A stretch of DNA of 54,106 bases from assembly GCA_964353635.1 (NCBI GenBank), contig CAYGVS010000004.1, positions 1-54,106 of the forward strand, written 5' to 3'. Below, one piece after another: positions 30,212-36,317 of the stretch. This DNA is from an uncultured archaeon. Its GTDB lineage: Archaea; Aenigmatarchaeota; Aenigmatarchaeia; QMZP01. The notes beneath the pieces are model-generated. The model saw nothing but the letters and a program-made list of their open reading frames with translations. It made no database searches and was not told the origin of the DNA. The translations under genes and the position numbers were made by a program. Numbering within the stretch: the stretch's first letter is position 1; each line of letters opens with the position of its first letter.

Positions 30212-33200
30212 ATGTTAATTTCATTTAAAACGAAATTTATATTTTTCTTATTAATTTTTTGTTTTTCAATTCCAATAAACTTTGTTTCAGGCTCAGAAGA
30301 AACTGTTCTATATTTGAAATTTGATGAAGGTGACGGAACTGTTGTATTTGATTCTTCAAACTATAGAAACAATGGTACTGTGAATAATGCATTTTGGGAA
30401 TTGAATAAATGTATAGATGGAAGTTGTCTTTTTTTCAATAATTTTAGTTCATATGCATCAGTAAATCAGCACGCATCATTGAATCCGCAAAATTTTACGA
30501 TAGAAGCATGGATATATAGTTTTGGCGGTACTGGCAATAGAACTATTGTCAATAAAGATACAAACGGTCCGGCCACAAGAGCTTGGAGATTACATTTAGA
30601 TTCTAATGAAAATGATAAACTGGTGGCAGATTTTCAAAGACCTATTGGTCTTCCTTGGGCGGTTGTTTACAGTAATAAAAGCATAAAGAATAATACATGG
30701 TATTATGTCGCTGCAACTTACAATCATTCTTATTTTTGCGTTTGGATTAATAGTGTTTTAAGTGGATGTTTGCTAGAAAATAGCGATATTGATTATCGTT
30801 GGACTCAATCAAAATTAATTATAGGTATGTCCGAAGATAGTAGTAACAAAAAATTAGAATATTTTAATGGTATAATTGATGAAGTTAAAATTTCAAATTA
30901 TGCTAAGAATTACTCCCAATTGTTTTCAATTTACAACGAATTTTGTCCAAACGATTTATGCAACCAAAAAAATAGTAATATTAAAAATGTAGTTAACCCC
31001 CTCATAATAACCTCTGCCGAGCAGAGAAATGTCCTCTCCGCGGTGCCTGCGAAAGCGCCTGTTCTTGTTGCTGATTCCATTACACCCGAAGTCATGCGGT
31101 TTATTGAGGATTACAAGCCTGACTGGATTTATACTGTGGGTTTTTCGTCCGGGCTTGGGAATTCCAGCAGGATCCTCTATAATCAGGTGCCTGGACTGTT
31201 CTTTCCCAATGCGAGCAGGGCTGTTTATGTGAATGGGAGTAGTAGGGAGAAGGGGATTCTTGCCTCTCAGATAGCGTATTATCTGGACATGCCGGTCGTT
31301 TTTGAGAGGGATGGAGGGAGCTATTCGGAGATTATTGACCTGGAGAACATGAGCCTCCAAGAGATAGGGGATTTCTACATCAATCTTGTGAAGGAGGACG
31401 GAAGGAACATAGACTATCTTGTCCTTACCAATTTCAGCAGCAGCGAGAGCCTGCTTGCAGGCAGGCTAGCTGGGATGCGGAATGGGTATATCATACCATT
31501 GGAGAATGGGAGTTATGAGGGTGTCATGGCAAGCCTCAGGGTCGGTGCTGATTTTTTGGGTTCGCATAATCTGTATCATAAGAATGTCATGTACAAAACT
31601 GGGAAGCCCCTCTATCTTGCCCTTCTTGGGAGCAATGAAAGCATTCCTCACATCCCGTTCTTCGATCCCGGATTGGAGATATTTGATAATAAGGATGGGT
31701 GGTGGCTGTATTCTGATGTGGGCTACTCAGATTTGAATGGGGATGGGTATTATGACCTGGCGCTCGGGAGGATGGAGGGATTGGAAGCAGCCTCGCTGCA
31801 TTTGGCAAGGCAATCGGTTCCGAAGAATCAGAGCGTGGTGCTTATTGGGGAGTATAGGCATGGGAAGTTTGAGGATTTGAAATTCTTTGGTAGCGGGATG
31901 TCGCAGGTGTTCGCAGCGCAGGTCCTGCTGGGCCATGTAAATGTTTCCACGAAAAGGATAGTTGAGGAGAAGCTGAGCAGCCTTGACGGGATTGGCAATT
32001 CGAGCATCTATGATTTTTTCGGGAAATTCAACACAATCGTTGCGACTATGATAGCTAAGAATATGGTGAAAGGAATAGCTTTGCCATGGACGGTTGCCGA
32101 GTATTCGAACATTGCCATGTATGCTATACTTGAGTATGATTGGAATTCATGGGCAAAGCTTCTTGGTATTATACCTGTTCCGAGGCATCTTGATTCTATT
32201 GAAGCCGATCTGGCTGAAAGGATTGGATCCCCTGGTGTGATTGGATACTTTGGGATGGGTGAGGGCTTCTGGCTGATTCCCAACAATAGCAGGAGCTATA
32301 TGGAGCTGCTGCTGAACCCTTACAGCAGGGCTGTGGAGTTTGACAACATCACCTTTTCAGGCTTCCTTTATGATGATCATGATGTGTCTGCAAAATCGGT
32401 CATAAAGGAGAAAGTTCTGAGAGAAGGTGGAAGCGTCATGGGATCATCGGGGATTGTGCATGATCCGTATAACATGCACACCTCTACCATGTTCTTCATA
32501 TGCCTGGCGCAGGGTAAGCCGTTGGGTCAGGCGTTTATGGAATCTGTGAATACTGACCCTCTTACATTCGCTGTTGGTTTCTTTTCATTGTATATGGCCT
32601 ACTCCAATATTGGGCAGGAAGAGGCTGCCATTGCATATCCGCTGCTTTACTCAAAAGACAAGCTTGAGAGGATACTTTGGGCAGACCCTGCAGCCACGCC
32701 TCTAGAAAGGAGATACTCGCCGCAGAAGGCTGTTTACAAAACCGGGCCTGCCAACTCTTTCATTGCTGAAGTTTTGGTTGCGGTCAACAGAACAGGACAG
32801 GAAGTCCTGAACGCTGACACCTATCTTGCTGAGCCGGAGAAGCCTCTGCTGCCTGTTTATTATAGAGAATTTGTGCTTCCAGAGGGCAGCTTCTTGAATT
32901 GGGTGAATGTTACTGGTAACTATTCACTGGAGAACTCTGGTATGGCTCTGGTTTATAATGATTCGCATTACACCAATTGGACAGAGATAATTGTCGGATG
33001 CATCGGCTCATTGGGATTTTCCAGCCTTCAGGAATTGGATGCAGAGAAGGAGAGCCTTATAGAAGATTGTGTTGATAATCTCACCCGGCCGGATGTGAGC
33101 TATCCGTACCCGAACGTAACATTCTGGTGGAAAGAGGCTAGGCTTCTGGATAATAGGACCATTGTCATGGTGTTCATCCCTGCTGTTATTGCGGAGAATG

Positions 33201-34969
33201 AGAGCCATAGCCTGTTTTTGGAAAGCGCAACCGTCCAGGTTGGTTATGAGGCTTCCATGGAAATGAATGTTTTTGCACAGGATGTTTTCTTGGGTGAGAA
33301 CGCAACTGTGCTTGTGGAACTCATGAACATGGGAAATGAGGTTTCCGGGAACATCTCTATTTTCGTGGAGGGGAATGGGAGCCTGGAATTTCTGGATGAA
33401 GTGACTGTCCTGGGAAATTCGAACACCACAATTGAGTTTTCTTTCCAGCCTAGTTTGGGGGAGCATGAAGTTACTGCTGTATTTGAGGGTGATAATGGAA
33501 TAGGGCCAAGGTATGCATATTTCTCCGTTCATGTCCCTCCTGCGCTATTTGTCGGTGATATTCCAGAAATTGAGGTCAATGAAGGTGAGGAGGCTGAATT
33601 CCATATAAGCCTTAAGAACACAGCTGGCTTCCTGCTAGAAAATATAAGCGTGGTTTATGAGGGGCCGTTTGAGGTGGAGCCCTATTCAAATGGATTCGAT
33701 TTTGAAGGGTATGGTAATATAATTTTAGATGCATACGTGAAAGTCCCGGAATCATATCTTCCTGGGAGATATTCTGGATTAGTAAATTTCTTCCCATCAA
33801 ACGACAAGAAGGTTACTGCAAACCTCACCTTTATTGTGCCTGCAAGGGCATCGTTTGATGTGCAGAGCAACATGCTTGCTGAAGCAATCAAGCCTGAGAG
33901 TTATCAGGAAATAATCATTCCTGTCCATAACACAGGCAATGTTCCGCTGGCTTTGAAAGGCTATTGTGAAGGGTTCGATGGGATTTCCTGCTCCTTCTTC
34001 CCAGATGATTTGGAGGTCCTTCCCGGACAGCAAGGGATGCTTTACGCAAACATCAGCGTTGATGGGGGGCATCAGTCTGGCCTGTTCTCCGGAACAATTC
34101 GGGTTTCAGGCGAGGGCGTATCAAAGGAAATGGCACTTGGTGTAGATGTCCTTGAAGCTGCATATTGGGAAATTTCTCCTTTGGAATGGCACTGCCGTCT
34201 CCCTGGATGCGTACAAGACTTCCTTGTTTCAAGCAGTCCTGAATCGAACATGCCGTTGGAGCTGGATTTCATCACGGGAAACCTTAGCCTGTTCTTCGAT
34301 GATTTTGTCACCAGTGTTTTGCCAGGAGAATCAAAAAATGTGACTATGGCTGACAAAGTGCTCCAGGAAGGCTTTGCCGCAGGCATTTATGAAGGGGAGA
34401 TTAGAGTTGCTGCAAGCTTGAATTCAGAGCCGGCGTACAATACAATAAAGACTAAGGTCATTGCAGAGGGGCCTGAGTTCACATTGGAGAAAGAGTTCTC
34501 GCCTGATAGTGTCATGCTCTTCTGGAAGCAGTTTGTTGCTCCAAGAGTGAGTCATGTTGAGATTTATCTGAATAACATAGGAGATGTCTCCATAGATAGA
34601 GTCAGGATCTCTGACGAGATTCCTGACGGCTGGAAGGGCAAGAAGCCTGTGATTTCCTTTGCGAAGAGAAACAAGAAGTCTATGGTGAAGGATTACATGG
34701 TTTCATATGAAAACGGCCAATTGAACCTTTCATTTAATTTCACTGGCAAGCCGTTGCTGAAGGGAGAGGGTCTGGAGATACATTATATGATTTATGCCCT
34801 GCCTGAAACAGTCCCAAAGCAGGGTATAATTACGCAGACTGTTGGAGAGTCTAGGAGCAGCCAGAACATATATTCGGTTGCCATCAAGGAGACGACATTG
34901 AAAGTCGAGTATTTTGACCCTCCTCAGTGGCTCAGGTGGCTGTTCGTTATGATTTATAGGCTGTGGTAG
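30212..34969 (+). CDS. Large secreted surface protein: signal peptide, LamG/ConA-like domain, degenerate peptidase C25-like region, C25 propeptide-like segment, Ig-like repeats, C-terminal hydrophobic tail
   Basis: LKFDEG.G..V.DSS, FTIEAW, WYYVAATY, FNG.IDEV.I (LamG); LLG..ESIP, YSDV.YSD, DLALGR, LG.AF, LWADP (C25-like); EPEKPLLP; HNTGNVPL repeats; many N-x-S/T sequons. Confidence 0.7.
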   Translation: MLISFKTKFIFFLLIFCFSIPINFVSGSEETVLYLKFDEGDGTVVFDSSNYRNNGTVNNAFWELNKCIDGSCLFFNNFSSYASVNQHASLNPQNFTIEAWIYSFGGTGNRTIVNKDTNGPATRAWRLHLDSNENDKLVADFQRPIGLPWAVVYSNKSIKNNTWYYVAATYNHSYFCVWINSVLSGCLLENSDIDYRWTQSKLIIGMSEDSSNKKLEYFNGIIDEVKISNYAKNYSQLFSIYNEFCPNDLCNQKNSNIKNVVNPLIITSAEQRNVLSAVPAKAPVLVADSITPEVMRFIEDYKPDWIYTVGFSSGLGNSSRILYNQVPGLFFPNASRAVYVNGSSREKGILASQIAYYLDMPVVFERDGGSYSEIIDLENMSLQEIGDFYINLVKEDGRNIDYLVLTNFSSSESLLAGRLAGMRNGYIIPLENGSYEGVMASLRVGADFLGSHNLYHKNVMYKTGKPLYLALLGSNESIPHIPFFDPGLEIFDNKDGWWLYSDVGYSDLNGDGYYDLALGRMEGLEAASLHLARQSVPKNQSVVLIGEYRHGKFEDLKFFGSGMSQVFAAQVLLGHVNVSTKRIVEEKLSSLDGIGNSSIYDFFGKFNTIVATMIAKNMVKGIALPWTVAEYSNIAMYAILEYDWNSWAKLLGIIPVPRHLDSIEADLAERIGSPGVIGYFGMGEGFWLIPNNSRSYMELLLNPYSRAVEFDNITFSGFLYDDHDVSAKSVIKEKVLREGGSVMGSSGIVHDPYNMHTSTMFFICLAQGKPLGQAFMESVNTDPLTFAVGFFSLYMAYSNIGQEEAAIAYPLLYSKDKLERILWADPAATPLERRYSPQKAVYKTGPANSFIAEVLVAVNRTGQEVLNADTYLAEPEKPLLPVYYREFVLPEGSFLNWVNVTGNYSLENSGMALVYNDSHYTNWTEIIVGCIGSLGFSSLQELDAEKESLIEDCVDNLTRPDVSYPYPNVTFWWKEARLLDNRTIVMVFIPAVIAENESHSLFLESATVQVGYEASMEMNVFAQDVFLGENATVLVELMNMGNEVSGNISIFVEGNGSLEFLDEVTVLGNSNTTIEFSFQPSLGEHEVTAVFEGDNGIGPRYAYFSVHVPPALFVGDIPEIEVNEGEEAEFHISLKNTAGFLLENISVVYEGPFEVEPYSNGFDFEGYGNIILDAYVKVPESYLPGRYSGLVNFFPSNDKKVTANLTFIVPARASFDVQSNMLAEAIKPESYQEIIIPVHNTGNVPLALKGYCEGFDGISCSFFPDDLEVLPGQQGMLYANISVDGGHQSGLFSGTIRVSGEGVSKEMALGVDVLEAAYWEISPLEWHCRLPGCVQDFLVSSSPESNMPLELDFITGNLSLFFDDFVTSVLPGESKNVTMADKVLQEGFAAGIYEGEIRVAASLNSEPAYNTIKTKVIAEGPEFTLEKEFSPDSVMLFWKQFVAPRVSHVEIYLNNIGDVSIDRVRISDEIPDGWKGKKPVISFAKRNKKSMVKDYMVSYENGQLNLSFNFTGKPLLKGEGLEIHYMIYALPETVPKQGIITQTVGESRSSQNIYSVAIKETTLKVEYFDPPQWLRWLFVMIYRLW

Positions 34970-35062: not shown

Positions 35063-35198
35063 GCCTCAGTAGCTCAGCAGGTTCGGAAGTTTGAACGTGA
35101 CCGAGTCACGTTCTTTCGATGAGAAGAGCACTCGGCTGTTAACCTTGCAAGAAAGGGCTGATACCGAGTGGTCGAAGGTTCGAGTCCTTCCTGAGGCG
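35063..35198 (+). tRNA. tRNA-Asn(GTT) with an about 41-nt D-loop insertion (about 35083-35124) and a 21-nt 37/38 intron (35142-35162)
   Basis: Acceptor GCCTCAG/CTGAGGC+G, D stem GCTC/GAGC, anticodon stem CTCGG/CCGAG with CT-GTT-AA loop, T arm GAAGG-TTCGAGT-CCTTC; BHB at the 37/38 intron. Confidence 0.92.
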
Positions 35199-35219
35199 CT
35201 AACAGAATAAGGTGTTTCC

Positions 35220-35492
35220 ATGGACATTAGGATGGAGTTGATATCAAACTGCTTCGATATCAGGGGATTCAACAAAAGGTGCAATTTCCATGGCTGCGCA
35301 AGGGCTCCTGAAAAGGAAGCCCTCATAATGGAGAATGACCTGAAGAGACAGCAGAAAAAGGAGCTCGTTTCCCTTTATTTCTGCAGCAAGCACTTCGACA
35401 TGTGTGTGAAGGATTTATTAAACCAACTGAACAAAATATGTGAGAGCGGCAAGAACGTGTACATGGAAAGCTACGAGGCAGGAGCGAAATAA
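35220..35492 (+). CDS. Small Cys-rich hypothetical protein, possible Zn binder
   Basis: GGTG RBS upstream; CNFHGC...FCSKH pattern; fills the gap between two tRNAs. Confidence 0.65.
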   Translation: MDIRMELISNCFDIRGFNKRCNFHGCARAPEKEALIMENDLKRQQKKELVSLYFCSKHFDMCVKDLLNQLNKICESGKNVYMESYEAGAK

Positions 35493-35542
35493 AAGAAAGC
35501 ACACCTAAAAAGCAGCAATAGATGGGACGACGGAAATGTCGC

Positions 35543-35719
35543 GGGAACCTTAAGGGGATTGAAGGCGACGAGAGTAGCCTTCGGGTCAATAAAGGCCGCA
35601 TCGGTAGCTCAGTCCGGGAGAGCACACGGCTGAAGATCGATTGACGACTTGCATGGGTTTATCAAGTCTTCTTTCTATTTGCGACCGTGGTGTCGTGGGT
35701 TCAAATCCCACTCGTCCCA
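35543..35719 (+). tRNA. tRNA-Phe(GAA) with a 55-nt acceptor-stem intron at 4/5 (35547-35601) and a 48-nt 37/38 intron (35636-35683)
   Basis: Spliced product GGGA|CGG TA GCTC AGTCCGGGA GAGC A CACGG CTGAAG|A CCGTG GTGTC GTGGG TTCAAAT CCCAC TCGTCCC A (74 nt); both introns sit in BHB-type motifs. Confidence 0.9.
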
Positions 35720-35738: not shown

Positions 35739-36317
35739 ATGGCAAAAAGCACGCAGGCGAAAGAGAAGAATGAAGTTCGTAGTATCTACAAGCCTGCGGA
35801 GTGCAGGCTCCTGGAGAACAAGCTCTTTGTTCCAAAGGGTTTTGATGAGCTGCTCCAAAGGTCTTACGGAAAACATATGGAAGGGAGATTGGAGCTGGCT
35901 TTCGTGGAGGCTCTCTACCTCCTTGAGAAAGGCAGGATAGCTGTCAAGAAGTCCGGGAAGAAGATGGGCTTCCAGGAGCTCATGGAGTTTGGGATGGAGA
36001 GGGACAAGAGGCTGCATGAGAAGTATGTCGTCTACAAGGACATTAGGGAGAGGGGACTGGTCGCCAAGACAGGTTTCAAGTTCGGATGTGATTTCAGGGT
36101 TTACCAGCGGGGAGTCGGCGTCAAGAAGGGTCCAAAGGAAGCCTCGGAGCACACGAAATGGATTGTTTACACAGTCCCTGAGGATTATGCGTGCTCCTTC
36201 GCTGAGCTCTCAAGGGCTGTGAGGCTTGCCCATTCTATAAGGGCCAGGATGCTCTGGGCGATAGTGGATAATGAGGACGATGTCACCTATTTCGAGGTCG
36301 TGAGGATAAAGCCTTAA
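35739..36317 (+). CDS. endA: tRNA-splicing endonuclease, single-unit (alpha4-like) subunit
   Basis: YGK..EG.LEL..VEALYL, VYKD.RERG..KTG.KFG.DFRVY, EH, R.AHS.R, AIVD..DV.Y....KP. Confidence 0.95.
   Translation: MAKSTQAKEKNEVRSIYKPAECRLLENKLFVPKGFDELLQRSYGKHMEGRLELAFVEALYLLEKGRIAVKKSGKKMGFQELMEFGMERDKRLHEKYVVYKDIRERGLVAKTGFKFGCDFRVYQRGVGVKKGPKEASEHTKWIVYTVPEDYACSFAELSRAVRLAHSIRARMLWAIVDNEDDVTYFEVVRIKP

Follow-up and report, generated by a model that had tools for sequence, protein, structure and literature searches.

A predicted tRNA splicing endonuclease of Aenigmatarchaeota without the canonical catalytic lysine, and a loop lysine as its possible substitute

The catalytic triad of archaeal tRNA splicing endonucleases (EndA), composed of a tyrosine, a histidine and a lysine, has been described as conserved across these enzymes and as aligned with that of human TSEN2 (PMC5829648, PMC3488258, PMC12397907). 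The gene P0001 (35739..36317, plus strand), found in contig CAYGVS010000004.1 of an uncultured archaeon of the Aenigmatarchaeota (assembly GCA_964353635.1), encodes a single-unit (alpha-type) EndA without the canonical lysine, and so raises the question of whether an EndA can work without this residue and, if so, what has taken over its role. The whole stretch of DNA analyzed, positions 1 to 54,106 of the contig, is referred to as the window. An initial annotation of the window had pointed to the missing lysine, to a lysine-rich loop and to an intron-bearing tRNA gene just upstream, and had proposed that a loop lysine or a neighboring arginine may substitute. Our analysis confirmed that the lysine-to-alanine change is genuine and lineage-wide. 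Judging by its sequence and that of its relatives, P0001 is very probably catalytically active, and such activity would be unprecedented among the EndAs studied to date. Overall, the explanation towards which we lean is that of an active single-unit EndA in which the role of the lysine has moved, most plausibly to Lys133 of the loop.

That P0001 is an EndA can be seen from its architecture and fold. The open reading frame begins with ATG and spans 192 codons and a stop, giving a two-domain protein of 192 residues, in which the N-terminal domain PF02778 (tRNA_int_endo_N) was matched over residues 24-82 with an E of 2.5e-14 and the catalytic domain PF01974 (tRNA_int_endo) over residues 94-184 with an E of 2.4e-27, both above the Pfam cut-off. 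A phmmer search against the sequences of solved structures gave 25 different chains at E<=1, among which those of Methanopyrus kandleri (5x89), Methanocaldococcus jannaschii (1a79), ARMAN-2 (4fz2), Nanoarchaeum equitans NEQ205 (3iey_A) and Aeropyrum pernix (3p1z_B) ranked best. The AlphaFold2 model, for which the input alignment held 85 sequences, has a mean predicted local distance difference test (pLDDT) score of 92; its top Foldseek match is 1a79_A (template modelling score 0.82/0.91, root-mean-square deviation 1.7), and the matches listed at E<=0.001 are splicing endonucleases only. The M. jannaschii enzyme, an alpha4 homotetramer (1A79), is both the best structural match of P0001 and its best single-unit sequence match (E 6.2e-35). 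The two proteins share the two-domain single-unit architecture, the length class, the catalytic tyrosine and histidine, the recognition arginine (Arg162) and the acidic L10 loop 'IVD..D', whereas in M. jannaschii EndA Lys156 takes the place of Ala169 and the Tyr-His loop is shorter by six residues. P0001 is probably a homotetramer like this enzyme, which is described as cutting strict bulge-helix-bulge motifs only (PMC5829648, PMC6379350).

The residues expected for bulge recognition likewise appear to be present. Arg162 (36222..36224, plus strand), the arginine of RNA bulge recognition, is invariant and lies seven residues ahead of the lysine site, as R327 does before K334 in M. kandleri (PMC5829648). 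At column 189 of the alignment, arginine is found in 62/62 members of the clade of Lys-less enzymes, and in 18 of 19 canonical single-unit enzymes the column is occupied by Arg (9), Trp (7) or Leu (2). We infer that column 189 is the second bulge-recognition residue, and P0001 was on this basis counted as having two-residue recognition. The acidic L10 loop, which tetramer assembly requires, is conserved in the Lys-less clade as well (D177 94%, E179 88%, D181 70%).

The loss of the lysine is seen in all relatives from this clade that were examined. In each of the five alignments printed by phmmer (5x89 unit 2, 1a79, 4fz2 unit 2, 3iey_A and 3p1z_B), the lysine of 'AHSxRK' stands opposite Ala169 of 'AHSIRAR' (codon GCC, 36243..36245, plus strand), while Tyr122 (codon TAC, 36102..36104, plus strand) and His138 (codon CAC, 36150..36152, plus strand) occupy the catalytic tyrosine and histidine columns. 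P0001 thus keeps two of the three catalytic residues and lacks the third, as had been read initially from the letters. Among the 120 closest homologues (63-100% identity), some of which carry the NCBI label Candidatus Aenigmarchaeota, Ala169, Tyr122 and His138 are each found in 120/120, and the motif 'AVRLAHSIRA' is invariant. We also searched 121 genomes of the phylum for PF01974 and obtained a match in 120; all counts of this survey refer to the matches listed, and it should be noted that 24 further, weaker matches exist. The short-type matches comprised 94 loci with 103 open reading frames matching P0001, of which 93, all from other genomes, are catalytic and ten are beta-like. In the 93 catalytic genes, which come from 92 other genomes of the phylum, site 169 is occupied by Ala in 85, by Thr in five, by Ser in three and by Lys in none. 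As all four alanine codons are used at this site (GCG 21, GCA 37, GCC 11 and GCT 16), the residue is under purifying selection. No differing letter is listed at 36243-36245 in the contigs of three public runs (X1, X2 and X3), although the source sample may be among these runs. Taken together, the homologues, the genes of the phylum, the four codons and the three runs rule out an error of sequencing or assembly, against which the initial annotation had cautioned.

The argument for activity comes from the distribution of the gene. The Lys-less short type is the only type in 68 of the 121 genomes, while it is accompanied by an epsilon-type EndA in 16, the window's genome included, and by a beta-like neighbor in nine. 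A further 22 genomes have the epsilon type only, three have a two-unit Lys-less fusion, one has a beta-like fragment only, and two were left unclassified (one without a match and one with a contig-end fragment). A single PF01974 match at E<=0.001, among the matches listed, is found in 65 of the 68 short-only genomes (65/121 overall), the remaining three (G022, G043 and G087) having two matches each. In 5/5 near-complete genomes assembled in few contigs, of which one consists of a single contig of 875 kb, no PF01974 match other than the Lys-less gene was obtained even at E<=10. Outside the phylum, the same holds above the cut-off for the complete genome of Nanohaloarchaea archaeon SG9, where the next match has an E of 0.117; SG9 was included in a published EndA survey (PMC5829648). 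Such genomes do contain tRNA genes of intron-bearing length: five of eight tRNA matches in genome G114 and seven of 14 in G106 span the full model and measure at least 95 nucleotides, as do seven of 28 in SG9. Were the sole splicing endonuclease dead, intron-bearing tRNAs could not mature, and this is a strong inference; the Lys-less EndA is taken as active because it is the sole EndA catalytic domain in many genomes with intron-bearing tRNAs.

The genome from which the window was taken (G000; 1.03 Mb, 48 contigs, 88% complete) does encode a second EndA. This protein, P0121, is a three-unit enzyme of epsilon2 type with 436 residues (contig C8, L002:1126-2436, minus strand), which matches the EndA of ARMAN-2 (Candidatus Micrarchaeum acidiphilum; 4fz2) over its full length at E 3e-88. 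It has the full triad, that is, the tyrosine, the histidine and 'AHSVKK', together with a loop 'GVYR' that resembles the ARMAN-specific loop (ASL) 'GTYK' of ARMAN-2. The ARMAN-2 enzyme (4FZ2, 9W2K) is thus the close relative of P0121; P0001, unlike it, is a single unit without ASL. The search for a second subunit proposed at the outset hence yielded this canonical enzyme and no beta-like partner, the PF01974 matches in this genome being P0001 and P0121 only. Across the phylum, 37 of 40 long-type loci are of epsilon type, with Tyr/His/Lys in 37/37; with the window's genome included, the epsilon type is present in 38/121 genomes, with Tyr/His/Lys in all 38. As, according to a 2018 paper (PMC5829648), it was known only from ARMAN-1/-2 and Mancarchaeum, this type looks more widely distributed than stated there. 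The other three long-type loci (L105, L107 and L111, in G033, G058 and G059) are two-unit fusions with serine at the lysine site and an L3 loop, in open frames of approximately 370-415 residues. Their representative relative P0122, of 360 residues, has Tyr and His in both units with Ser at both lysine sites, and the loop of its second unit reads 'RGVxLK[RK]GQK'; such fusions look like alpha'2-like enzymes within the Lys-less clade.

If the enzyme is active, where does the positive charge come from? The most obvious place to look is the loop between the catalytic tyrosine and histidine (Gln123-Glu137, QRGVGVKKGPKEASE, 36105..36149, plus strand). The spacing between these two residues is 16 in P0001 and 10 in M. 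jannaschii, as was initially stated, and appears as a gap of six residues in the alignment with 1a79. With NEQ205 (3iey_A), the catalytic alpha subunit of an (alpha-beta)2 enzyme (3IEY), P0001 shares the spacing of 16 and aligns without any gap in the loop, VKKGPK in P0001 corresponding to PKKGKR in N. equitans. Lys129 (36123-36125), Lys130 (36126-36128) and Lys133 (36135-36137), all on the plus strand, thereby stand opposite K93, K94 and R97 of NEQ205 (residue numbers from PMC3488258). [quoted passage not shown] Kaneta et al. in 2018 renamed it L3 and reported it from diverse DPANN lineages, alpha4-type enzymes included (PMC5829648). By its place and sequence, a basic insertion between the catalytic tyrosine and histidine, the loop of P0001 is this published Nanoarchaeum-type L3 and is thus already known; the lysine-rich insertion of the initial annotation was real, only not new. 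The analogy that had been suggested to the crenarchaeal and ARMAN loops was not borne out. The crenarchaeal loop (CSL, or L1) and the ASL (L2) are insertions with a conserved lysine that lie within the catalytic unit's N-terminal portion, a place other than L3, and P0001 has neither, as no insertion relative to 1a79 was found in that region, just 'YGK' without extra length. NEQ205 also differs from P0001, in that it retains the canonical lysine (Lys133 in NEQ numbering) within 'AHSTRKK' and requires a separate beta subunit, NEQ261, of a kind that the window's genome did not yield.

To see which basic residues are peculiar to the Lys-less enzymes, we set 94 catalytic domains of the Lys-less kind against 132 canonical ones, which were drawn from the 150 best representatives at 50% identity. 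Lys133 is Lys in 94/94 of the former (100%), against 4% K/R in the latter. The other two loop lysines show a similar contrast, with 96% against 3% K/R for K129 and 97% against 5% for K130. R124 and K140, by comparison, are K/R in 100% of the Lys-less clade and also in 42% and 47%, respectively, of the canonical domains, and R168, which is Arg in 94/94, corresponds to K/R in 82% of them (52% R, 30% K). On these counts Lys133 is the sole strictly invariant lysine that is specific to the clade, and in the 120 closest homologues G131, P132 and K133 are each found in 120/120. The arginine next to the alanine, Arg170, is variable among the same homologues (R71, Q18, T18, K10, E2 and S1) and was ruled out as a substitute. 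The initial proposal thus stands for the loop lysine, as the best candidate, and falls for the neighboring arginine.

The beta-like paralogues allow this comparison to be checked against a natural control. Ten such open reading frames were found among the short-type loci of the phylum; nine of them adjoin a catalytic copy, and the tenth lies at the end of a contig on which no catalytic copy was seen. Both His138 and GPK are missing from all ten, and their loop is shorter by five residues. In the nine in which the motif region is visible 'NI[RK][AT]' is kept; Arg168 is kept in eight of these nine and replaced by Lys in the ninth. The L3 loop therefore tracks catalysis and Arg168 does not, since paralogues that have lost the histidine have lost GPK but kept the arginine, and it is for this reason that Lys133 is preferred as the candidate. 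The pairs of a catalytic Lys-less gene with a beta-like gene, found in nine genomes (L077, L083, L086-L089, L092, L093 and L095), are of interest in themselves, as an (alpha-beta)2-like arrangement appears to have originated within the Lys-less clade.

The mechanism that we propose on this basis is as follows. P0001 would be a working tRNA/rRNA splicing endonuclease of alpha type, in which Tyr122 would act as the general base and His138 as the general acid, both having been retained. A small residue, in most cases Ala and in a few Thr or Ser, has taken the place of the canonical third residue, the lysine of 'AHSxRK', and the positive charge that stabilizes the transition state at the scissile phosphate would be supplied from elsewhere. 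Its likeliest source would be the invariant Lys133 of 'K-[KR]-G-P-K', which lies in the L3 loop between Tyr and His, beside the active site, and for which a small residue at position 169 may make room; the restriction of this site to small residues fits a side chain that enters from the loop. In the window's genome, the enzyme coexists with an independent canonical EndA of epsilon2 type. We would give Lys133 an even chance of being the substitute. The broader proposal, by which, across two DPANN phyla and in all examined relatives of this type, the catalytic lysine has moved from the end of a helix to Lys133 of 'GPK' in L3, leaving a rewired Tyr-His-Lys(loop) site, is more tentative still and should be given slightly less than even weight.

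An error, or an inactivating mutation that arose recently and in this genome alone, being left with a negligible probability, as the lysine is absent from 120/120 homologues and 93/93 related genes, two other explanations need to be weighed. By one of them, P0001 is a catalytically dead structural or RNA-binding paralogue, and the canonical epsilon2-type enzyme on contig C8 performs all cleavage. The initial annotation had itself named a dead subunit with a normal paralogue as an alternative, and such a paralogue does exist: P0121 has the full triad, it is complete, and it could in principle do all the splicing of this organism; both EndA types are, moreover, found together in 16/121 genomes. 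The published mutants point the same way, as K282A in ARMAN-2 EndA, the equivalent of Ala169, abolished detectable cleavage (PMC3488258), and the same change was reported to kill the Archaeoglobus fulgidus enzyme (PMC12397907). Nonetheless, the Lys-less type is the sole EndA catalytic domain in 65/121 genomes and in the complete SG9 genome, with intron-bearing tRNAs present, and on these sole-enzyme genomes the reading as an inactive structural subunit was rejected. Structural beta subunits such as NEQ261 (3IF0) do resemble P0001 in being without the catalytic lysine, but they are without the catalytic residues altogether, whereas P0001 keeps the L3 loop and an invariant Tyr and His; the true structural paralogues of the phylum have lost the histidine and the loop. 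It should also be considered that the published epsilon2 enzymes are self-sufficient homodimers (PMC3488258). A dead P0001 is thus improbable.

The other explanation accepts that the enzyme is active and places the role of the lysine somewhere other than on the L3 lysine, either on a different basic residue (Arg168, Lys45, Arg124 or Lys140) or on nothing at all, so that Tyr and His alone would act, at a lower rate that slow-growing symbionts could tolerate; on either version, L3 would only bind and position relaxed substrates, as the literature proposes. We consider this unlikely, though to a much lesser degree than a dead protein. Arg168 is Arg in 94/94 catalytic genes, and R124 and K140 are K/R in all of them; however, the conservation of Arg168 looks structural, given that it is kept in 8/9 of the His-less paralogues. 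Lys45 of the N-terminal 'YGK' (35871..35873, plus strand), noted for its conservation, ranks second, and as the weaker candidate, among lysines that may be near the active site: it is K/R in 88/94 catalytic genes and in only 1/10 beta-like paralogues, and a hand count on the alignments puts it at a distance of about two residues from Tyr160-Lys161 of the ARMAN-2 ASL, near the site at which ASL and CSL enzymes depend on loop lysines (PMC12397907). The idea is weakened by the finding of [YF]GK in 15/15 Hadarchaeota EndAs that retain the canonical lysine, so that Lys45 is no compensating gain. In favor of the loop, Lys133 is the only clade-specific lysine that is strictly invariant, active-site lysines carried by a loop are already established as essential for ASL and CSL enzymes (PMC12397907), and the limitation of site 169 to Ala, Ser and Thr suggests a steric requirement that goes beyond mere loss. 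Several observations, in addition to the mutants and to P0121, should nevertheless be counted against a relocation to Lys133. The pLDDT score within the L3 loop of the model is just about 81-82. In ARMAN-2, the loop lysine mutants K241A and K244A were made, and K241 and K244 were not shown to matter (PMC3488258). A Lys-less locus from a metagenome-assembled genome (MAG) of Nanohaloarchaea, L154, has an L3 loop, 'PRGANPYAEEEGNRA', without any lysine, and two loci (L159 and L162) carry a rearranged loop 'KD[DE]KGRK', unlike the otherwise conserved G-x-K. Four representatives (P0130, P0186, P0196 and P0268) have Tyr and His, Thr at the lysine site and a loop of only nine residues; these may be further, separate losses of the lysine that do not fit the idea of a loop lysine. 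In the P0130 cluster, one sequence carries the label Diapherotrites. Lastly, genomes of one clade are not independent observations, and the counts given above should be read with this in mind.

Named genomes were scanned with an alignment of divergent Lys-less members as the query, which returned 80 loci. Of these, 59 combine Ala, Thr or Ser with a loop of 15-16 residues (14 from Aenigmatarchaeota, 22 from Nanohaloarchaea/Nanohalarchaeota and 23 unlabelled or otherwise labelled), and 21 combine Lys with a loop of 8-9 residues (15 from Hadarchaeota and six others); none of the 80 was of mixed type. The clade of Lys-less EndAs thus spans Aenigmatarchaeota and Nanohaloarchaeota in the samples searched. 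Three records stand out by their labels, namely, EndA genes labelled Methanosarcinales, Bathyarchaeota and Sulfurovum (L161, L171 and L217); the one labelled Sulfurovum is canonical, the other two combine a long loop with the absence of the lysine, and all three are probably mis-binned contigs in those MAGs. A tree was calculated from 85 sequences, from which the loop and site columns had been removed; this was a quick search, and several rows are long-branched. A branch with a Shimodaira-Hasegawa-like approximate likelihood ratio test (SH-aLRT) value of 95 places all 62 Lys-less long-loop rows on one side, together with P0130 (Thr, short loop), and the tree needs at least three state changes overall. 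P0191, P0172 and the NEQ-like P0271 possess both a basic long loop and the canonical lysine, which fits an order in which the loop would have come first and the lysine been lost later.

No paper on an EndA that lacks the catalytic lysine was found in the literature covered, which did not extend to subscription-only papers. We describe a large natural clade without the catalytic lysine, often with no other EndA in the genome, and activity of the enzyme would mean that another solution has to be found for the accepted model of catalysis. Should the proposal of a loop lysine be true, L3 would be a catalytic element and not just a substrate-specificity loop, and a non-canonical triad would for the first time be known from a natural EndA. 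The enzyme would also offer a clean case of active-site residue relocation, with N. equitans-like enzymes, in which the loop and the canonical lysine occur together, as a living intermediate. The 16 of 121 genomes in which the P0001 type coexists with an epsilon2 type, in turn, provide a natural system for the division of labor between splicing endonucleases.

The immediate surroundings of the gene hold what appear to be natural substrates, as the two adjoining tRNA genes seem to have two introns each. The nearer one (35524..35719, plus strand) ends 19 nucleotides before the start of P0001, the 3' end of the Rfam tRNA match at 35719 being in agreement with the distance given initially. The Rfam match itself (35598-35719) shows a mismatched 5' acceptor strand, whereas GGGACGA at 35524-35530 pairs perfectly with TCGTCCC in the predicted fold, and related contigs (DNA, with loose ends) join GGGACGA directly to 35605 and 35636 directly to CCGTGG. 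Two introns are thereby delimited on the plus strand: one of 74 nucleotides between tRNA positions 7 and 8, which is non-canonical (35531-35604), and one of 48 nucleotides that is compatible with position 37/38 (35637-35684 or 35636-35683). By our own reading of the anticodon as GAA, this gene would encode tRNA-Phe. The second gene (35063..35199, plus strand) was called by aragorn with option -i as Val-AAC with one intron; we read it as probably Asn-GUU, mis-assigned by aragorn, with one intron in the D-loop and another after the anticodon loop.

In default mode, aragorn did not report any tRNA for the window. When introns were permitted, it detected ten tRNAs in the whole genome, nine of them intron-bearing, and missed the two-intron tRNA-Phe. 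Because a genome of 1.03 Mb yields only these ten, most tRNA genes here are taken to be too disrupted for standard finders, and the heavy disruption of this organism's tRNAs by introns, which had been suspected from the first, is borne out by Rfam, aragorn, the fold and the related contigs. In six of 20 related loci, the EndA gene is closely preceded by a tRNA gene of the same strand. Five of these tRNAs are 72-74 nucleotides long, the length of an intron-less gene. As the neighboring tRNAs are thus mostly of intron-less length, the adjacency looks like conserved gene order and gives no evidence of the co-evolution that had been suggested.

On the 3' side, the EndA gene is followed by genes for ribosomal protein S17e and for a CBS-domain protein. 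Between the two tRNA genes lies an open reading frame of 90 residues (35220-35492, plus strand), which has no Pfam match and contains the Cys/His pairs CNFHGC ... CSKHFDMC; it may encode a small protein that binds zinc, or it may not be a gene. A protein of 1585 residues encoded further upstream (30212-34969, plus strand) probably belongs to the cell surface, as it begins with a hydrophobic stretch, contains a Laminin_G_3/concanavalin-like domain and is rich in N-x-S/T sites.

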